Positions 15,177 to 60,963 of a DNA stretch of 64,000 bases are shown one piece after another (position 1 is the first letter of the stretch; each line of letters opens with the position of its first letter). The stretch is from Parcubacteria group bacterium (GTDB lineage Bacteria > Patescibacteriota > Minisyncoccia > Moranbacterales > UBA11712). The stretch is taken from NCBI GenBank assembly GCA_041659685.1, contig JBAZXV010000001.1:178771-242770 (forward strand), read 5' to 3'. The translations under genes were made by a program, and so were the position numbers. The notes beneath the pieces were generated by a model, which did not search any database, had not been told where the DNA came from, and saw only the letters and a program-made list of their open reading frames with translations.

Positions 15177-15527
15177 ATGAAAAAAGATATCCACCCAAAA
15201 TATTATCCGGAAGCGAAAATAATTTGCGCTTGCGGAAATATAATTGTCACCGGATCAACCCGGCCAGAAATGAAAGTCGAGGTTTGCTCGGCTTGCCATC
15301 CTTTTTATACCGGAAAAAAACGGCTTGTCGATGCGACTGGACAGCTTGACCGTTTCAAGAAACGCTTTGAAAAATCGGAAAAAATAAAGGCTGAGAAGGT
15401 GAAAAGAGCCGAAGATGCAAAGAAAAAATCGAAGGCCGCCAAAGCCGGGAAAGCTAAGACGGAAAAACCAGCAAAGACGCCCAAAAAGAAGCCGGCCGTA
15501 AAAAAGACTCCGCCGAAGAAAAAATAA
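15177..15527 (+). CDS. rpmE: 50S ribosomal protein L31 with Lys/Ala/Pro-rich C-terminal extension
   Basis: [10 protein letters not shown] ... [11 protein letters not shown] core, followed by a ~50-aa basic tail. Confidence 0.9.
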
Positions 15528-15546
15528 TAACTTTGATATATTGCAT

Positions 15547-15575
15547 AAAAACCCGCCTCAGGCGGGTTTTTCTTT
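15547..15575 (+). terminator. rho-independent terminator of rpmE
   Basis: CCCGCC-TCA-GGCGGG stem-loop flanked by an A-run and a T-run. Confidence 0.7.
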
Positions 15576-15728
15576 CTTTGCAGTCGCGTGAAAAACTCAG
15601 CAATCCGTCCGAAAAAAAGATACACCTTATAAAATATGATTATTATTCAGAAAGAAATATTTTCTTTTTTTGAGTGTATTGGGGTATATAGCAAATTGTT
15701 TCAAATGAAAACAATAAGGAGGAGCCTT

Positions 15729-15926
15729 ATGCCTAAAGTTAAAATGGAAATGAAAGGCTGTACGGATTGTCAAAGTTTTCGATACACATTGGACGAAGGA
15801 AGCGTCTGCCTAAAGGTTGGGCTTGCGCGAATGCTGCAGGAAAAATTGTGGCACCAGTATAATCAAGATTTTCACGCGAACAAGCTCTTCGAATCGATTC
15901 CGGATTGGTGTCCGATCAGGCTATAG
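15729..15926 (+). CDS. small Cys-containing hypothetical protein (65 aa)
   Basis: ATG at 15729 lies 7 nt after AGGAGG. The protein has C-x2-C plus two distal Cys (CTDC ... C ... C), and a perfect 26-nt palindrome follows the gene. Confidence 0.45.
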   Translation: MPKVKMEMKGCTDCQSFRYTLDEGSVCLKVGLARMLQEKLWHQYNQDFHANKLFESIPDWCPIRL

Positions 15927-15947
15927 CGCAATTTTAGGTTCCCGTCT

Positions 15948-15973
15948 CAACCGGCTGGCATGCCAGCCGGTTG
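15948..15973. terminator. perfect 13+13 palindrome between convergent genes
   Basis: CAACCGGCTGGCA|TGCCAGCCGGTTG. Confidence 0.5.
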
Positions 15974-15977
15974 CAAT

Positions 15978-16232
15978 TTATTTATAAATAAATTTTGCGG
16001 CAATCAGCGCCCCTGCCAAAACAAGTTCCACCGTATTGGTAATAATCAGCGGCATTTCGTTGATCCCAAATGCATAAATTTGAAACAAAACCAATCCGAA
16101 AATATAAATTACATTCCAAAGAAGTGAAATGTCGGCGGTGGATTTTGTTTTCCAGGCTTTTGAGACCTGCGGCGCAAGCGAAACCGCGATTATGAATCCG
16201 GCGAGATAGCCCGTGAGTTGAATCGAGTTCAT
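15978..16232 (-). CDS. SemiSWEET / PQ-loop family transporter (84 aa, 3 TM)
   Basis: Three hydrophobic helices and a PQ motif (SLAPQVSKAWKTKS). The size is typical of bacterial SemiSWEETs. Confidence 0.7.
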   Translation of the reverse strand: MNSIQLTGYLAGFIIAVSLAPQVSKAWKTKSTADISLLWNVIYIFGLVLFQIYAFGINEMPLIITNTVELVLAGALIAAKFIYK

Positions 16233-16234
16233 TT

Positions 16235-16765
16235 TTATATTTTTAAATCAATAATTTCAGCTTTTTTTGTTGCGGTATCATAGAGAGCGACCGTGGCAGG
16301 CTGGATTCCTGTTTCTGCCATATATCCGATGAGGGATCCGGGGTTTACGACCAACGTTTTTCCTTTTTGTCCGATAAGCGGCTTGTGGGTATGGCCAAGA
16401 CACAAAACGTCAAACATCTGCGACTCTGTCAGACAAGCATTCATATTCTCATCGTCGCCATGGAAAACTCCGAAACGGATTCCTTCGATCGAAAATTCAA
16501 GGAAGCGGGACGACAAACTCAAATCCAAATCTTTCAACATCTCAATATTCTGCAATTGATAAAGATATTTCTGAATATCCGGATCGCCATTTCCCATAAC
16601 GCCCCTAATCGGGCATTTCAGCGCCAAATACGCCCTCAATGAGAATGGCGCGTCCCAATCGCCGCAATGAACGAGAAGGCTGATTTTTTCTTTGTTGAAA
16701 AATTCAATGGCCTTTTGAAGATGCCGCAAATTGTCATGCACGTCCGAAATTATGCCTATTTTCAT
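16235..16765 (-). CDS. metallophosphoesterase, YfcE/MJ0936 family
   Basis: ISDVHDN, HCGDW and GHTH motifs in a 176-aa protein. Confidence 0.75.
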   Translation of the reverse strand: MKIGIISDVHDNLRHLQKAIEFFNKEKISLLVHCGDWDAPFSLRAYLALKCPIRGVMGNGDPDIQKYLYQLQNIEMLKDLDLSLSSRFLEFSIEGIRFGVFHGDDENMNACLTESQMFDVLCLGHTHKPLIGQKGKTLVVNPGSLIGYMAETGIQPATVALYDTATKKAEIIDLKI

Positions 16766-16794
16766 TTTTTTCTAAAATTAGATGTTAGTAAATA

Positions 16795-17184
16795 CTAGAT
16801 TTCCTGCAATAATTTCTCCAACTCGCATTCGGCGAAATTGACGGAGGCGTGGTCGAATTGGTTTTTTAAAAAAACGGAGGCTTGAAATCTCTTGAGAGCC
16901 GTTTTTATGAATTCTCTCAATGTGTCAATATTATCTGGATAATCGGCTCTTAGTAAAACAACAATCACACGCCCGATTAATTCCGTTTTCTTGAGGTATA
17001 CGCTGACGACAAGTTGGACCGCTTCTCCCTGCTTTTGATAGGGCATCAGTTCAAGAAAATCCTTATGTTTCTCCGCGACTATTTCAATCTGCTTCTTGAG
17101 AGGCAGGAATCCGAAGTCCAGAAAATCATCATTCTTCGGCCGGTCGCTTGTCAATTCAATTTCACCGATGAAATATTCGGACAT
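16795..17184 (-). CDS. hypothetical protein (129 aa)
   Basis: ORF whose start overlaps the upstream stop (TAATG), so it is translationally coupled to the kinase-like gene. No motif recognised. Confidence 0.5.
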   Translation of the reverse strand: MSEYFIGEIELTSDRPKNDDFLDFGFLPLKKQIEIVAEKHKDFLELMPYQKQGEAVQLVVSVYLKKTELIGRVIVVLLRADYPDNIDTLREFIKTALKRFQASVFLKNQFDHASVNFAECELEKLLQEI

Positions 17185-17708
17185 TATTTTTTTAGCTTAC
17201 TCAATATCATCTCAGCAACTTTTTTGGGTGATAAATTGGTATTGTCTATCTTGATATTTTCGACAAATGGAATTTCTCCCCAGTGATGTTGGTCGCGTTT
17301 TAGAATTTTTATTGTGCTGATCTTTTTGTATTTCTTTCTTTCCGGGCTTTTGACTCGTTTCAGAAGTTCTTCTTGGGAGCAATCAATGTAGAAAAAGAAT
17401 ACTTTTCCGCCGTGCTTTTTGATAATCCTGACAATTTTCTTGATAAAATCGGGAGATTTTTTCGGACGGAAACCATATGTAAAAATCAAGTTCGGCACCT
17501 GGCCGCTTTTGGCGGCCGCTTCGAAAGCGCTCAGCATTATCTTTTTGTTGAGTTGGCTGTATTCGGGAGTTCCCCATTCAAAAAAAGTTTTTGCCAAATC
17601 AACGGAAAGGTGATTGTGGAAAAGCGTGAAGCCCGTCTTCTTCTTCAATTCTTTGGCGATAGTTAATTTTCCGACGGCCGGCTGGCCGTAAATGAAGATT
17701 AAATCCAT
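17184..17708 (-). CDS. P-loop kinase-like protein (AAA_33 / shikimate-kinase-like fold)
   Basis: N-terminal Walker A (IFIYGQPAVGKLTIAKEL) in a 174-aa protein. Confidence 0.6.
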   Translation of the reverse strand: MDLIFIYGQPAVGKLTIAKELKKKTGFTLFHNHLSVDLAKTFFEWGTPEYSQLNKKIMLSAFEAAAKSGQVPNLIFTYGFRPKKSPDFIKKIVRIIKKHGGKVFFFYIDCSQEELLKRVKSPERKKYKKISTIKILKRDQHHWGEIPFVENIKIDNTNLSPKKVAEMILSKLKK

Positions 17709-17711
17709 AAA

Positions 17712-18149
17712 CTATGCTTTGCTTCGTTCTTTGATAAAAGCCCTTATATCTTCCTTCATGCCCGGTTTTTCCATCATTTTCAAAGCTTCTTCCGCCGTGA
17801 CCCAGGCATAGCCCGAATGCTCCTCGGATACTATCACCTCTTCAGAATCAGTTTTGCACCAAAACATAATCCCTACAAGCTCATTTTCGGCGATTTTTTC
17901 GCCTCGAAAAATATGAAAAATAGAAATTGGTTTAACTATTTCCACTTCGAGTCCTGTTTCTTCCATAACTTCCCGCCTCAAACCGTCCTCAGGATCCTCG
18001 AATTGATGCAGGCGTCCGGTGGTGTATTCCCAAATTCCCGGCGAATAATCCTTTTTTCCGCTTCGTTTCAGCAAAAGAATTTTGCCGGTCGTTGAGTTTT
18101 CGACGATGGCGCCTGTCGCGACCAAAAATTTTCCGATTTTGTTTTCCAT
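17712..18149 (-). CDS. NUDIX hydrolase
   Basis: Nudix box GRLHQFEDPEDGLRREVMEETGLE. Confidence 0.8.
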   Translation of the reverse strand: MENKIGKFLVATGAIVENSTTGKILLLKRSGKKDYSPGIWEYTTGRLHQFEDPEDGLRREVMEETGLEVEIVKPISIFHIFRGEKIAENELVGIMFWCKTDSEEVIVSEEHSGYAWVTAEEALKMMEKPGMKEDIRAFIKERSKA

Positions 18150-18295
18150 AAAATCCTTCTATATTGCCAGTTTCCCTAATTTAGGCGCAGTCGAGGACCG
18201 TCCTCAACTGACTTGCTTTTAATTTTAGAGGGCGTTAGAAGATAAATACTGGGGGAGGAATAGCGCCAACGAACCATTCCTCCCATAATCTCCCC

Positions 18296-18523
18296 TTAAG
18301 GATTTCTCTTTTTCATTGCCAGCGCCAGGACTTCTTCCGGACTCATACCGAAGTCCTGTGGTAACGGCTTGCCGCTTTGCGACACGTGGATCTTCTCGTC
18401 GAGTGTCTGGGGAACGAGAATGAGAGTGTATTCCCGTCCGGTCGCTCGCTCAAATGTGGCAAGCGCGTCGTTCAACCTGATTAGAGCCGCGTCACATTCC
18501 GGACCAAGATGAAAAAATCCCAT
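18296..18523 (-). CDS. small hypothetical protein (75 aa), GC-rich patch
   Basis: Strong SD (AAAGGAGGTGA) upstream of the ATG. Local GC is higher than the surroundings, and a downstream hairpin is GGGAGGAAT...ATTCCTCCC. Confidence 0.6.
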   Translation of the reverse strand: MGFFHLGPECDAALIRLNDALATFERATGREYTLILVPQTLDEKIHVSQSGKPLPQDFGMSPEEVLALAMKKRNP

Positions 18524-18570
18524 ACCTCACTCACCTCCTTTGGATTCAGCTTGGGGTTGAAGAGAAAATC

Positions 18571-18804
18571 CTACGCCGCAAGCGCAAGCGGCATTTCCTC
18601 TTTTTCCGCCTTTCCCCTTTTTTCCTCCGGATCTGACGGAAAATCGCAGGCTGGAAACATATGAACCTTAAATACGAGCAACCGGCCCCTCTCCCACACC
18701 TGGACTGAGCCTTGGTAGCAATCGCCGGGTTCGATATATTTGCAGCACATGTCGCACCAGTGCTCGATTTGAGCGATATGCTGGAACGTTCGAAGTATCC
18801 GCAT
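18571..18804 (-). CDS. small Cys-rich hypothetical protein (77 aa), GC-rich patch
   Basis: Strong SD (AAGGGAGGAG) 5 nt before the ATG. Contains HWCDMCC and a distal Cys. Confidence 0.6.
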   Translation of the reverse strand: MRILRTFQHIAQIEHWCDMCCKYIEPGDCYQGSVQVWERGRLLVFKVHMFPACDFPSDPEEKRGKAEKEEMPLALAA

Positions 18805-19306
18805 ATTTTCTCCTCCCTTTGGAAATTCGAATTGTGCAACATTCTTAAATTGTTGATTTAATAGTAATATATCGCGGGCTTAAAGTCGAATTTGGCGTTT
18901 TGACAAAAGCACTTTTTTTTGCGAGTATTAGAATCAAGTGGTCATAGAAAATTTTTGAGGAGGTGATAACTAATTTGCGAAAGACGATCTTAACGCTTGA
19001 AAGGGATTAGCCCGGCGGGCCACACCTAGGGCACTCGAAAAAAGGTGGAGCAGGTTCCCATTCTCCTTCGGGAGGATTAGGCCCCGCGCCGCAAAAGAGC
19101 CACCCAGCTGACTGGAAATCGTTCACTTGATCCATTTGGGCTGGAGAGAGTGAAGACACCACCGGCGACGCCAGTTAGCGAACGGAGGGGAAATGGCAGG
19201 CGCCTAAGGTTTCGCAATTCTCCGAATCATGGCCACCAAGGGAGAGTAATTGCTTTATGCAGCATCAAAGCAATGTCCAATACTCTCCAGTTTTTTATTA
19301 TTACTT

Positions 19307-20374
19307 ATGAAAAGCCAGGTCGAAGAAGTGAAAAAAGAATACAAGAGCCTGAAAAGCGAGCTTGAAAAGCCCGAGATTGTTTCCAATTCCCAAAAAATGA
19401 AGACCGTGGGCAAGAGATTGGCCGAGCTTGAAGAAATTATGACTAAGATAAGAGAATTTGAAGATATTGAAAAACAAATGCGCGAGAACGCCGAAATTGT
19501 GAATACGGAAAAAGATCCTGAATTCAGGAATATGGCCATGGAAGAAAATATCAATCTTTCAAAGAACAAGGAAACGGTTGAAAAAGAGCTTCAGTCCCTC
19601 CTTATCCCCAAAGACCCGAATGATTCCAAAAATATTATCGTGGAGATCAGAGCCGGAGCCGGCGGTGACGAATCCGCTCTTTTCGCAGCCGAGCTTTTCA
19701 GAATGTACAGCCGTTACGCCGAAAAAGAGAAATGGAGGATATCTCTCCTCAATTCCAGCCAAAACGCAATTGGAGGCTTTAAGGAAGTAGTTTTTGGCGT
19801 CGAAGGATCAAGCGTATACGGAAAAATGAAATATGAATCCGGCGTCCATCGGGTGCAAAGAGTCCCGGAAACAGAAAAGATGGGAAGAGTCCATACTTCA
19901 ACAGCCACGGTTGCCGTTCTTCCTGAAGCAGAAGAGGTTGACCTCGAAATCAATCCCAATGACCTTCGAATCGACACTTACTGCTCTTCCGGTCCCGGAG
20001 GGCAAAGCGTAAACACGACTTACAGCGCCGTGAGGATTACCCACATCCCCACCGGGACGGTTGTCACCTGCCAGGACGAAAAATCGCAGATAAAGAACAA
20101 GGAAAAGGCGCTGAAAGTCCTTCGCTCCCGAATTTTGGCCGAGCAAGAAGCCAAAAAAGCGAAAGAAATGGGAGATCAAAGACGCAGTCAGATTGGGACG
20201 GGTGACCGCAGCGAGAAAATCAGGACTTATAATTTCCCTCAGGATCGAATCACGGATCATCGGATTAAAGAAAGCTGGAGCAATATCCAGGGAATATTGG
20301 ACGGAGATTTGGGGAAAATTATCAACAAATTGGAGGAAGAAGATATGAAGAGGAAAATGATCAACAGTCAATGA
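19307..20374 (+). CDS. prfA: peptide chain release factor 1
   Basis: RVQRVPETE (PxT tripeptide), the GGQ motif ([11 protein letters not shown]) and a 355-aa length from [12 protein letters not shown]. The ORF-track start at 19250 is probably too early. Confidence 0.9.
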
Positions 20375-21264
20375 AAGCCATCGACATAACCATCAAAGAT
20401 CTCCTGCAAAATACTGCTTTAGCAAAAAATTTAGCTCCTTTAGATCGGGAGCTTCTTTTATCCTTGGTTCTGGGAAAGGATCGGGAGTATGTTTTGGCTC
20501 ATCCGGAAAAAAAGCTGACTGCCGCCCAAACGGCAAAGTTTATTCAATTCGCAAAAAGACGGCTCAAGGGCGAGCCTGTGGCTTATATTTGCGGCAAAAA
20601 GGAGTTCTACGGATTGGAGTTCGATGTTAACAAAAATACATTAATCCCCCGTCCCGAAACCGAACTGCTAGTTGAAGCTTCGCTTCAAAGAATTATGAAT
20701 TATGAATTAGGAATTAGGAATATTATTGATGTTGGCACGGGTTCGGGCAATATTATAATTTCCATAGTTAAAAATATTCCAGCTAACATTAGAAAGAAAT
20801 TAAATTTCTACGCGTCTGACATTTCGGGAAAAGCCTTAAGAGTTGCTCAAAAAAACGCGCTAAAGCATAAAGTCAATCGATCTGTTAAATTCATAAAATC
20901 GGACCTCTTGAAATTCGCCCTAAAGAAAAAAATGAAGGGGAATGTCATAATTCTTGCCAACCTGCCTTATGTTTCTTCCAAGTTGTATAAGAAAAATAAA
21001 AAGAATCTTCAATTCGAGCCAAAAGAGGCTTTAATAAGCGCAAATAATGGCCTCGCCCATTACACTAGACTCCTCGAGCAGATAAAAATATTATCCGATT
21101 TGCGTCATGCGTTATGCGTTACGTGCTGCTTTGAGATAAGTCCCGAACAAAGGATTCCGGCAAAAAGGTTTTTATTGAAATATTTCCGAGGGGCAGAGGT
21201 TGTTTTTCATAAAGATTTGGCCGGAAAATTCAGAATTCTCGAAATCAATATTGAAACGAGATAA
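20371..21264 (+). CDS. prmC: release-factor glutamine N5-methyltransferase (HemK/PrmC)
   Basis: Overlaps the prfA stop by 4 nt. It has a SAM-binding DVGTGSGNI motif and NLPY in place of NPPY. Confidence 0.85.
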
Positions 21265-58395: not shown

Positions 58396-60963
58396 TCAGT
58401 CCTGATCAGGTCCCGCTTGTCTGACATCCTTTTTTTCAGGAACCGCAACAGGATTCTGTGGCTTTTCCAGAAACTGGGGCGGAGCGGACGACTCTGCCTT
58501 GGGTGTTTCCGGAGTTATTGGTTGTTCCGGCTTAACTTCTGCCGGAGTTTGAGGCGGCATAGCAGGCGGTTCCGCCGGCTTGGCCTCTGGTTTTTCCGGA
58601 ATTGATGGAATAATTATTTTTCCGTCCGGAACCTCAGGCAGAACAGGCTGTTCCACCTTGGGCGCATCCGGAACCGGCGTCGGAGCCTGGGCAGGTTGCT
58701 CAGGCTTGTCCGGAGTGATTGGTTGCTCCGGCTTGGTTTCTTGCGGAGCCGGGATTGGTAGCGCCGGAACCTTGATCGGCGTTTCCGGCTTGACTGCCGG
58801 ACACCGCTCCCTCAACTTCTTTTTACGTTTCGGCGGTTTTTTTACTTTTACCGGCGGAGCTTTTTCAACTGCGGGAGGACAGATAATTTTCGGCTCAGCC
58901 GGAATTATCGGTGCTGGAGGTAAAACCGCAGGAACAATCGGCTCAATTTCCGGCGTGTCCCAAGGAACTTCTTTGGTCCCGCATTCCACCATCGCGCCCT
59001 GGATGGTCCAAAATACGCGATAAAAATCGACAGAATCCAGATAGTAGTTTCTTTTCCCAAAATATCGGCCGTAGGAGAGGTATACTCCCCCAACTTCGAC
59101 CTGCACTTTGCCTCCGCCGCCCTTGGGGCCATGGCGGAAACGCAGAAAGGCCGGGCCCGCCGATATTTTGAACAGGTCATCGCACGGCGATTGATACAGG
59201 ACCGGCATAATACCGGCATGGAAAAACCCGTCCGTCTCCCAGAGCAGGAAGGCCTTCGCTCCCGGGAGCAGCTTGCCATATTTTCCGCTCTTCACCGGCT
59301 TCCACCAAAATTCCGTGGCGGCGTCAACCGTTGCATAGCGGCGGGACATCCGATAGTTAAAATCCCCTTTTTCCCAGCGTCGGCCCGCAAGAAGGCCAAT
59401 CGTCGTATCCGTCCCGCCCCAATCATGGCGGGTGATAATCTCCGGCCAAATGCCGAATGAACGGCTACAGCCTGATCCGGAGAATTCGGACGGGTGAACT
59501 TGATACTCATACCACCCGAACTTTGCCGCAGGTCCGACTCCCAAAAATACGTTGGGCGCCAATTCTGCTTCGAACGGCCGCAAAGCGATATTATGCCATG
59601 CAAACCGTCCCGAGAGATTCGGCTCACGGCTGATTCCACCTCCAATCGGTATTTCTACCCGTTTCGGATCGACCCACCAACGAATGCGCTGAGGAAGATC
59701 GATGTAGTCATTGAAGGTTTGACCTTGGCCTTTGACATCGGCAACAAACTGCCGATAGGGAATCTCACCGCCGATGTTGGCATTGTTTTCCCGGACATAC
59801 GACTGTCCATAACTTTTTTCGCTCTTCGCCGGGTTTGGATAGGCGCCGACTTTTTCATCTTTCCGGAAGGATTGCCAGAAAGCAAAATCCTTCTCGAAAA
59901 GCTCTACGCCATTTGTCTCGGTAGAGAGGCAAGGCGTGTTGTGATTGCGCAGAACGGTGGATGTAAATAATGCTGATCCAGCGCTCATTGCCATCCCAAT
60001 CGGCTCAGGACTGATTGTCAGCCCCCCATCATCGGCAAAGCGAACATAGCCACGGCGCCGGTCGGGTTTTTTGCAGGCCTCGACTAATTCGCCACGATCT
60101 GCCGCATAGCGGATCCCGTCCATCGGGACATAATACTTATTAAGGCCGGCAGCCCGAATAACTCCATCGAGCTGGCCTTTGTTGATGAGGCTCGTTCTCT
60201 GGAGACTATCAAGGCTCGTGCCATAGGTCTCGGCAACCAGAGCCATATACTCAGGATCTTTTTCTTCATACATTCCGCCCTGAAGTTTGGCATACTTGGT
60301 GCCTTCCAACCCCCAAACAACCAACTCACCACGTTTGTCTCCGCCAATGGCATTGTTGAAAAAACGGTCGCCACTGACAATTTTCCAATCGGAGGCAGAA
60401 CCAGTGAGTTCGGAGTTGAAATAGACTACGACCGGAAGCTTGCCATTCTTGTCGCTGCCGGACGGCAGAATAAAACCGTCCTCAATCCGACCAGAGCCGG
60501 AATTGACGGCCACCGCCTTCATGGTCTTTCCCTTAGCAAATTTAAGCGCAGGTGTGGGGATAAAACCTCTCACGGCAGTGACTTTTTTGGAGTCTTGCGG
60601 AGGTTTTTTGGTTGACCATGAATCACGAGGGGTGCAGAAGGGGGATTTCCATAATTTCCCATCTTCCCTATCCCCGTTCTCCGGGTTTTCCCACTTGTTG
60701 GGTTTGCGGGCCGTGTAAAACTGCCCGCTCTCCTGGTTCAGCCTTTCCTGGTAGATTTGGCCGTCACGAGAATTCTTCCACTCGCGGACCACACCGGGAT
60801 CGGCTTTTTCGGCGGAAGCGGCTTCTGAAACCTCTCCTCCGCTGCCGGAGCACTTATACCATCCCGGTTCGGAACCGGGAATTGGGTCTGCAGCTTTTGC
60901 TTGGCCGCTGGCAAAAACCAGCGAAAGGCCGAGCAGAGCAGCGATAAAAGACTTTCTGACCAT
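58396..60963 (-). CDS. large secreted protein (855 aa) with Pro-rich C-terminal tail, GC-rich island
   Basis: Signal peptide MVRKSFIAALLGLSLVFASGQAKA, a beta-strand-rich central region and a C-terminal ~170-aa Pro-rich region with KPEQPITP twice. Confidence 0.65.
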   Translation of the reverse strand: MVRKSFIAALLGLSLVFASGQAKAADPIPGSEPGWYKCSGSGGEVSEAASAEKADPGVVREWKNSRDGQIYQERLNQESGQFYTARKPNKWENPENGDREDGKLWKSPFCTPRDSWSTKKPPQDSKKVTAVRGFIPTPALKFAKGKTMKAVAVNSGSGRIEDGFILPSGSDKNGKLPVVVYFNSELTGSASDWKIVSGDRFFNNAIGGDKRGELVVWGLEGTKYAKLQGGMYEEKDPEYMALVAETYGTSLDSLQRTSLINKGQLDGVIRAAGLNKYYVPMDGIRYAADRGELVEACKKPDRRRGYVRFADDGGLTISPEPIGMAMSAGSALFTSTVLRNHNTPCLSTETNGVELFEKDFAFWQSFRKDEKVGAYPNPAKSEKSYGQSYVRENNANIGGEIPYRQFVADVKGQGQTFNDYIDLPQRIRWWVDPKRVEIPIGGGISREPNLSGRFAWHNIALRPFEAELAPNVFLGVGPAAKFGWYEYQVHPSEFSGSGCSRSFGIWPEIITRHDWGGTDTTIGLLAGRRWEKGDFNYRMSRRYATVDAATEFWWKPVKSGKYGKLLPGAKAFLLWETDGFFHAGIMPVLYQSPCDDLFKISAGPAFLRFRHGPKGGGGKVQVEVGGVYLSYGRYFGKRNYYLDSVDFYRVFWTIQGAMVECGTKEVPWDTPEIEPIVPAVLPPAPIIPAEPKIICPPAVEKAPPVKVKKPPKRKKKLRERCPAVKPETPIKVPALPIPAPQETKPEQPITPDKPEQPAQAPTPVPDAPKVEQPVLPEVPDGKIIIPSIPEKPEAKPAEPPAMPPQTPAEVKPEQPITPETPKAESSAPPQFLEKPQNPVAVPEKKDVRQAGPDQD

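Follow-up and report, generated by a model that had tools for sequence, protein, structure and literature searches.

A stretch of 64,000 nucleotides from a Parcubacteria group bacterium (GenBank assembly GCA_041659685.1, contig JBAZXV010000001.1, positions 178,771 to 242,770 of the forward strand), referred to here as the window and numbered from its first letter, contains upstream of the release factor gene prfA a segment that is, judging from the comparison of sequences, a non-coding, conserved structured RNA encoded on the plus strand. Its core occupies positions 18936 to 19240 and is followed by an intrinsic terminator (19241 to 19296) and by prfA itself (19307-20374, with PCRF and RF-1 domains), which overlaps prmC (20371-21264); these two plus-strand genes, whose order is kept in relatives, are presumed to form the regulated operon. 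We propose, with moderate confidence, that this non-coding element is an undescribed, lineage-restricted 5' leader of prfA-prmC that would act as a transcription attenuator of the riboswitch type. An earlier reading of the window, made by a model from the letters alone (the original prediction), had pointed to a GC-rich patch upstream of prfA with two small open reading frames (ORFs), called p1 and p2 here, and a stretch suspected of specifying a structured RNA. All the features that it listed were found where it had placed them, and its suspicion of a structured RNA is borne out by the conservation of the element, with compensatory base-pair changes, in two other contigs.

These two contigs, the Logan contigs L007 and L008 obtained from the runs SRR22315506 and SRR22388067, together with the window make up the three sequences on which the comparisons of the RNA are based, the window and L007 being close to each other. 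The order p2, RNA, prfA is the same in the three of them. Identity of the RNA to that of the window is 86% in L007 and 70% in L008, and the RNA is better conserved than its surroundings (86% versus 79% over the whole aligned 1.6 kb of the window and L007). The RNAalifold consensus has 71 pairs, with 90.6% of the cells paired, and compensatory changes are found in 15 pairs as compared to 1 to 4 in slid controls, the observed value being reached by none of 500 shuffles; these covariation statistics are optimistic, since the structure was derived from the same three sequences on which it is tested. No reading frame is common to the three sequences, which led us to discard a protein-coding function of the region, including the minus-strand ORF reported with the original prediction. 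Three observations place the RNA on the plus strand. The fold of this strand has a z-score of -2.09, with none of 100 shuffles as good, versus -0.60 for the minus strand; the helix cells, in the plus-strand reading, include 17 G.U versus 7 A.C combinations; and a U-tract lies 3' of the terminator hairpin on the plus strand only. An RNA of the minus strand acting as a leader of p2 is contradicted by the same z-scores, by the G.U and A.C counts and by the orientation of the terminator.

The best-supported parts of the fold are the helix P1 that closes the core (18938-18948 with 19227-19236), a three-way junction (19010-19092) and a long hairpin (19104-19144). Helix P2 is formed by GGAGGUG (18959-18965), which lies within the Shine-Dalgarno (SD) sequence GGAGGUGAU, and the anti-SD-like CACCACC (19157-19163); its 7 pairs are 90% paired, with one compensatory change. 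The junction, with helices that are 95-100% paired and 6 pairs changed on both sides, has closing helices at 19010-11/19091-92 and 19015-21/19080-87, a hairpin with an A-rich loop (19023-27/19043-47) and the UUCG hairpin noticed in the first place (19060-19066/19071-19077). The direct repeat that had also been noticed, GGATTAGCCC (19004-19013) and GGATTAGGCCC (19074-19084), is present as well, and its two copies of GGAUUAG(G)CCC turn out to be the flanks of the junction. The long hairpin (19104-09/19139-44 plus 19113-19/19127-34), with compensatory change in 4 pairs, is followed by the conserved single-stranded GANAGAGNNNAGACA. Beside P1 lies helix Px (19183-19224), in which CGGAGGG (19183-19189) pairs with UUCUCCG (19218-19224) around an invariant GGGAAAUGG loop, and whose 7 bp persist although the bases differ: the window and L007 have CGGAGGG/UUCUCCG, and L008 has ACAGGGC/GCUCUGU. 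Px takes the place of a helix of the RNAalifold output (helix 10, 19165-72/19208-15) that was rejected, being broken in L008. Two invariant blocks, CCAUUU (19134-19139) and AAAUGG (19190-19195, within GGGAAAUGG), are complementary over 6 bp, with a C to U change in L008 that keeps a wobble pair, and they could make a long-range or pseudoknot contact.

The terminator consists of an outer stem, GGAGAGUA (19241-19248) with UACUCUCC (19281-19288), and an inner stem (19249-19256/19267-19274), with an asymmetric internal loop, UGUCCAA, and is completed by AG and the U-tract at 19291-19296, so that it ends 10 nt before the ATG of prfA. The 8-bp hairpin and the T-run of the original prediction are therefore real, but the hairpin is only the inner part of this larger structure. 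The 3' half of the terminator, CAAAGCAATGTCCAATACTCTCCA (24 nt, 19267-19290, including the 7-nt loop UGUCCAA), is invariant in the three sequences, which are otherwise only 70-86% identical; UUGGRC at 19136-19141 is a possible pairing partner of the GUCCAA of the loop. The 3' strand of Px, UUCUCCG, sits two bases before the 3' strand of P1, and a candidate antiterminator (19217-19247) can be drawn in which AUUCUCC (19217-19223) pairs with GGAGAGU (19241-19247) of the 5' strand of the terminator and the 3' strand of P1 would fall in the loop. The best helices of this kind have 7 bp in the window, 7 in L007 and 5 in L008, and local folds show the pairing at a stage when the 3' half of the terminator has not yet been made. 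When the nascent transcript is folded, the minimum-energy structure includes P1 and leaves the terminator strand unpaired; if the 5' strand of P1 is blocked, the terminator strand pairs upstream in the three sequences. A different antiterminator, CUGGAGAG with CUCUCCAG, was discarded, as it is conserved neither in L007 nor in L008. The position of the element is that of a riboswitch or attenuator, with the promoter at 18897-18931, the RNA at 18936-19296 and the prfA ATG at 19307, a layout shared by the three sequences, and the sensor part shows the conserved fold with covariation (15 pairs versus 1 to 4 in the slid alignments), within the limits already given for three sequences and a structure taken from them.

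In related Moranbacteria (Candidatus Moranbacteria, or Moraniibacteriota, are the closest relatives of the metagenome-assembled genome that contains the window) the region mostly consists of rpmE, the rpmE terminator, a TTGACAA-N-TTTGCGAnTATTAG block, about 10 nt and the ATG of prfA, as at about 2440-2503 in contigs L012-L016. The same TTGACAA..TTTGCGAnTATTAG block precedes the RNA in the window, L007 and L008 alike; in the window it is the promoter-like TTTTGACAA-N11-TTTTGCGAGTATTAG at 18897-18931 on the plus strand, which was aligned with the prfA promoters of L012-L016 and is unique within the 64 kb. Gene callers sometimes extend prfA of relatives too far, and the block then appears in translation at the N-terminus of PrfA (FLTKLPFFAIIKTSD...). 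Because in relatives the block ends about 10 nt before the ATG and there is no SD, prfA looks leaderless, which suggests that its mRNA is leaderless or near-leaderless in this clade. Since the block that abuts the ATG in relatives stands before the RNA here, an element of about 360 nt appears to have been inserted behind the ancestral promoter of prfA and ahead of the start codon. The 5' junction of the RNA, ..GGTCAT/AGAAAA.., aligns with ..AGTCAT/ATGAAGAA.. of relatives, the 3' junction of the element is ..ACTT/ATGAAAAGCC, and the two junctions share an imperfect similarity of 7 nt (A-GAAAA and ATGAAAA). A second promoter for prfA is not evident. The ORF-free gap upstream of prfA measures 502 nt here versus a median of 90 nt in 49 relatives.

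The element is rare and its distribution patchy: it occurs in the window, L007 and L008 and probably in the P0037 contig of JGI sample 3300075153, whose gene map shows a PrfA of 88% identity, NUDIX and kinase genes as neighbours, as in the window, and a gap of 505 nt. It is absent from the P0038 contig, where PrfA is 87% identical and the gap, again from the gene map, is 100 nt. It is likewise absent from P0041, P0050, P0057, P0090 and 80 GTDB prfA loci. Searches with blastn, nhmmer and a covariance model (R1, 305 positions) in the 80 GTDB prfA loci, other loci and the window rendered no homologue beyond L007 and L008, and neither the window nor 574 kb of related loci contained a second copy of the RNA. 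A three-motif pattern gave 8 chance matches in viral contigs, and three more scans of viral sequences gave 0, 1 (a chance match) and 0. A pattern scan of metagenomes returned only an unrelated repeat from the metagenome Ga0049107 and did not recover the window's own contig either, so that this collection is uninformative; the repeat, ..AGAGAGGACAGACAGAGCCTGGTTTAGTCGCC..CCGGCCGGGAAATGGAGCGGGTC.., is dispersed in five copies (L098-L102) and has the appearance of a repeat family, from a eukaryote or another organism.

No known RNA family accounts for the element. At the gathering thresholds of Rfam only two tRNAs, at 11.5-11.7 kb, were found in the whole window, and ARAGORN detected only tRNA-Tyr and tRNA-Thr elsewhere in the window, with no tRNA or tmRNA in the region. 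With the 4227 families of Rfam 15 at E<=10, the segments 18100-19400 and 18930-19310 as well as L007 and L008 gave only chance matches of microRNA and snoRNA type (14-22 bits). The families left unmatched include RNase P, tmRNA, SRP, 6S, riboswitches, T-box, group I and II introns, ribozymes and rRNA fragments, in agreement with the original prediction, which had recognized no RNase P, tmRNA, SRP or riboswitch signature. Thus neither a match to a known family nor a lack of conservation was found. A T-loop of the GGUUCGAnUCC type is not seen in the RNA sequence, and features of RNase P, SRP, 6S, T-box, cobalamin and group I RNAs sought by eye gave superficial resemblances only. One of them, a likeness to a group I S element, AAGAUAUAG in L007, is not conserved. 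CCUAAG/AAUGG, which resembles the 11-nt GAAA receptor, is not conserved in L008. A group I or II intron is moreover at odds with the end of the element, ...UUACUU before the ATG, which has no 3'-terminal G, and with the internal intrinsic terminator, which would block transcription of the downstream exon.

The mechanism that we propose for an attenuator is as follows, and we infer from these features that transcripts exist, that termination is regulated, in which direction the switch works and what the effector might be. Transcription would start at the former promoter of the leaderless prfA, and the first 300 nt or so would fold into P1, which closes the structure, the SD/anti-SD-like P2, the three-way junction, the long hairpin and Px beside P1. 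If this fold is stabilised by an effector, Px and P1 would hold UUCUCCG, and the hairpin with its U-tract would terminate transcription 10 nt before the ATG of prfA. If it is not stabilised, UUCUCC would pair with GGAGAG of the 5' strand of the terminator, giving the antiterminator and read-through into prfA-prmC. Stabilised P1 and Px would thus favour termination and destabilised ones read-through, because the Px strand and the 5' strand of the terminator can pair. Candidates for the effector are a metabolite, a ribosome that translates a short upstream ORF, or a protein such as RF1 or PrmC, which would thereby regulate its own operon; direct binding of RF1 or PrmC and direct binding of a metabolite by the leader are equally conceivable. 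The start of prfA lacks an SD and is AU-rich, but it is plausible that it can be translated from the read-through transcript, because most genes here have no SD. Autogenous leaders of genes for the translation machinery are typically confined to narrow phylogenetic groups.

Several points weigh against such an attenuator. Only three sequences are available, two of them close, and the fold was tested on its own source sequences. The antiterminator has no support from covariation, the terminator strand being invariant, and a free G-rich strand tends to find some partner in silico. The closed form with P1 is already the thermodynamic minimum without a ligand, and termination would therefore be constitutive, for an essential gene, unless kinetics or an effector intervene. 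For a metabolite riboswitch, an aptamer of 300 nt would be large. Mere inherited synteny may explain the association with prfA, and regulation of prfA appears to be dispensable, as about 85 related prfA loci, including that of P0038 with its PrfA of 87% identity, are without the element.

It can also be the case, though we consider it unlikely, that the element is a small-RNA gene in its own right, about 360 nt long and trans-acting or housekeeping-like, that uses the old prfA promoter and stops at an efficient terminator belonging to it, prfA being expressed either by unregulated leak-through or from a weak internal promoter (TATTAT at 19296-19301, overlapping the U-tract and 5 nt before the ATG) that would give a leaderless mRNA. 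The strength of the terminator, with its tract of 6 U, and a closing helix between the 5' and 3' ends, a feature of stable RNAs, would suit such a gene, as would the apparently leaderless prfA of relatives and the spacing of TATTAT (TAATAT in L007), which is suitable for a leaderless start; the invariance of 24 nt in the 3' half of the terminator exceeds what a terminator needs and could reflect an overlapping promoter. There is, however, no convincing -35 sequence, and the -10 position of L008 has only TTTTAA/TTTAAA; no other copies or homologues were found in the window or in the 574 kb of related DNA; and the sharing of strands by Px, antiterminator and terminator would be purposeless in a free small RNA. 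That the element is a functionless relic of inserted or mobile DNA at the start of prfA (a miniature inverted-repeat transposable element or the like, an intron remnant or a decayed gene), the whole GC-rich patch having been acquired horizontally, is highly improbable in our opinion. Its patchiness among close relatives (the 505-nt gap of P0037 versus the 100 nt of P0038), its location in the rpmE-prfA interval, an insertion hot spot, a GC content and SD strength off the norm of the host, and the junctions CAT/AGAAAA ... ACTT/ATGAAAA, which resemble an imperfect 7-nt target duplication of ATGAAAA, are all compatible with a relic. Against it, the RNA is better conserved than the adjacent coding DNA and its substitutions preserve pairs, which is unexpected of decaying DNA; the three sequences have no reading frame in common; Rfam gives no signal of a group I or II intron and there is no G at the 3' end. 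As regards an insertion-sequence or miniature-element remnant in particular, the ends, inspected by eye, show no terminal inverted repeats, the window and the 574 kb hold no second copy, and the only sign of a target duplication is the imperfect 7-nt similarity of the junctions.

A further alternative, which we regard as very unlikely, is an attenuator mediated by ribosomes that would sense translation termination and so provide feedback on RF1. In this alternative the SD GGAGGUGAU, a perfect one of 9 nt that doubles as the 5' strand of P2, and a TTG at 18975 would drive an ORF of 8 to 11 codons (possibly 18975-19010 on the plus strand, as read from the alignments). A ribosome waiting at the stop codon would keep P2 and the junction unfolded, so that the antiterminator would form and more prfA would be transcribed; with rapid termination the RNA would close and terminate transcription. 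In L007 and L008 the frame has the TTG, 8 sense codons and TAA, whereas in the window GAA stands in place of that stop and the frame runs on to TAG at 19008-19010 (11 codons and the stop); the frame stops inside the invariant motif AAAGGGAYUAR, which runs into the closing helix of the junction at 19010. It speaks for a ribosome as sensor that the SD, the TTG and a spacing of 25 nt from the TTG to AAAGGGA are kept in the three sequences, even though no other stretch of the RNA varies more, that strong SD sites are rare in this genome, and that translation would compete with folding, as the SD strand is also the P2 strand. The stop is the RF1-specific UAG in the window, while L007 has UAA and then an in-frame UAG, and L008 UAA and then an in-frame UAA. 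There are precedents in the autoregulation of prfB by frameshifting and in tnaC, where stalling at the stop codon controls downstream termination. However, in about two cases out of three chance alone would give an open frame of 8 codons; the peptide lacks conservation, and the differences between the window and L007 are all non-synonymous; the first stop is UAA, also read by RF2, in two of the three sequences and is shifted by 3 codons in the window; SD and start lie 11 nt apart in the window and L007; and about 230 nt, with a large conserved fold that the model does not need, separate the stop from the terminator. As the ORF is short enough to arise by chance, its peptide is unconserved and it lies some 230 nt from the terminator, we rank it only as a rival or sub-hypothesis of the leader that we propose.

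Compared with riboswitch-type attenuators, the prfA leader is alike in being a 5' leader on the strand of the operon, in having a multi-helix fold closed by a helix of its 5' and 3' ends with an intrinsic terminator directly after it, and in one strand being common to an aptamer helix and the candidate antiterminator. It differs in lying outside the 4227 Rfam families, in the size of its fold (about 300 nt), which exceeds that of nearly all metabolite aptamers, in having only 3 or 4 representatives in one narrow clade, and in its downstream gene, a release factor gene, for which we know of no riboswitch and found none in our literature search. The autogenous leaders of translation genes, such as the ribosomal-protein leaders of the L20/infC operon, L10 and S15 and the thrS operator, are likewise cis-acting structured leaders before a translation-factor gene; the narrow distribution and the size of the RNA suit binding of a protein, and negative feedback fits an OFF switch. 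In this case, on the other hand, the rRNA models of Rfam gave no match, so that no mimicry of an rRNA site was detected, and we know of no RNA leader that binds RF1 or PrmC. With the prfB +1 frameshift and tnaC the RNA would share a possible short ORF with a strong SD in a release factor leader, stopping in a conserved motif, and, as a concept, feedback through the efficiency of termination; unlike them, it has neither a frameshift site nor a conserved arrest peptide, two of the three sequences have UAA, which is not an RF1-specific stop, and coupling would have to span about 230 nt and act through an intrinsic terminator instead of Rho. The large orphan non-coding RNAs (the raiA motif, OLE, ROOL, GOLLD and HEARO) were discovered by the same cue, a GC-rich structured intergenic RNA in an AT-richer genome, but none of them is matched in Rfam by the RNA described here, which is far rarer and tightly placed as a leader with a terminator and not as a free-standing gene.

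The two small ORFs adjacent to the RNA, p1 (18296-18523, 75 aa) and p2 (18571-18804, 77 aa), are real genes of the minus strand, opposite to the RNA and separate from it, and represent two widespread families of unannotated small proteins. The proteins of the window at this locus are WC831_00990 and WC831_00995 of NCBI. The original prediction had recognized no relatives for either, and indeed no match was obtained for p1 or p2 in Pfam, NCBIfam, PADLOC or the sequences of PDB; each nevertheless belongs to a conserved family. p1 has 32 homologues across Patescibacteria (53-79% identity) with a strongly conserved core (LNDALCSFERATGREYTLILVP..DEKIHMSQSGKPLP). For p2, only 2 close homologues came from a word-indexed search, and 236 cluster representatives (E<=1e-3) from an exhaustive profile search, so that the family comprises at least 236 clusters. 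The HWCDMCC cluster described for p2 is present at residues 15-21. The family alignment shows no variation at H15, C17, C20 and H48 and hardly any at C53, which gives an invariant H-x-C-x-x-C ... H motif with a nearly invariant P-x-C after it, and almost all members end in Ala-Ala, often as ..LAA or ..ALAA, which resembles the end of the ssrA degradation tag and can be taken as a lead only. This suggests that p2 is a zinc-binding and possibly protease-labile small protein. Fifty members of the p2 family had no match in Pfam, and a PHROG of unknown function gave one weak match to p2 (E 0.0015). The structure model of p1 (pLDDT, a per-residue model confidence, of 77) shows a helix, a small sheet and a helix, and its top matches, to MADS-box proteins, are only weak, so that a MADS-box (SRF-TF) DNA-binding fold was not adopted; the AlphaFold2 model of p2 is unreliable (pLDDT 47).

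p1 occurs without p2 in L001, L003 and L005, and p2 without p1 in L010. A fixed module of p1, p2 and the RNA was accordingly rejected, the two genes being found apart and without the RNA, and so was a toxin-antitoxin or defence module, since PADLOC, Pfam and NCBIfam were empty and the pairing is not conserved. Homologues of p1 are 71-77% identical in DNA between otherwise unrelated loci, which hints that the gene is mobile; in L001 (2669-4225) a gene for a Y1 transposase of the IS200/IS605 type is followed, 650 nt further downstream, by a p1 homologue. p1 seems to have been lost or to have decayed in the lineage of L007, which bears the RNA: after p2, at 1520-1609 of this contig, the SD region of p1 is kept, its ATG has become AAG, and stops then follow.

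The strong SD sites claimed for p1 (AAAGGAGGTGA) and p2 (AAGGGAGGAG) are present and are unusual in this DNA, where an SD-like motif was found within 22 nt of the start in only 17 of 60 long ORFs; prfA has none. As the genome mostly initiates without an SD, the perfect ones of p1, p2 and the leader stand out. The description of the region as a GC-rich patch holds in that p1 (52.2%), p2 (52.6%) and the RNA core (53.1% at 18936-19240) are raised over the mean of the window (43.4%), with a 200-nt peak of 58.5% at 19000-19199, but the enrichment is moderate and not extreme: the core falls within the top 3.7% of 305-nt segments of the 64 kb, and a richer stretch lies at 58.4-59.3 kb. The latter, the richest of the window (58400-59300, up to 59% in 305-nt segments), is inside an ORF of 855 aa on the minus strand (58396-60963). 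Wherever homologues of p1 and p2 occur, their GC content exceeds that of the host locus by 8-9 points, and the high GC of the two genes is therefore a family trait.

The rpmE-prfA interval (15527-19307 in the window) is, from the gene maps of relatives, an insertion hot spot, whose minus-strand genes vary among relatives and encode PQ-loop proteins, GNAT acetyltransferases, DUF1653 proteins, methyltransferases, NUDIX proteins, AAA kinases and metallophosphoesterases. In the window a kinase-like protein of the AAA_18 type (174 aa, 17184-17708, minus strand) gave a weak PADLOC match to VakA (E 2.4e-5). Some GTDB records, among them L013, L018, L022 and L023, are titled 'Bathyarchaeia archaeon' or 'uncultured Bdellovibrionales', yet have Moranbacteria-like rpmE-prfA-prmC loci, and these contigs are probably mis-binned or mislabelled.

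The two small-protein families, which are unannotated and one of which has a conserved Cys/His site and a terminal Ala-Ala, merit names. As for the RNA, it is a candidate structured RNA from the Candidate Phyla Radiation, for which, to our knowledge, no lineage-specific non-coding RNAs have been described; a literature search found none, although its query was a loose one and the phrase 'Candidate Phyla Radiation' stood in none of the papers listed. The synthesis of RF2 is autoregulated by a well-known frameshift, but we know of no comparable cis-acting control for RF1, and a search of the literature found neither a riboswitch nor any comparable cis-acting control of this factor. A structured leader with a terminator before prfA-prmC would be a new class of regulatory RNA. 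Moreover, the relatives, in which the promoter is fused directly to the ATG, make it a natural before-and-after case for the acquisition of a leader by a leaderless essential gene. It is distinctly unlikely, in our estimate, that the element is the first RNA-based feedback sensor of RF1, binding RF1 or PrmC or reading the speed of termination at the stops of the short ORF and thereby setting the ratio of termination to read-through before prfA. If this were true, however, such a sensor would represent a new riboswitch-like class that controls a translation-termination factor and that was recently inserted into a formerly leaderless gene.

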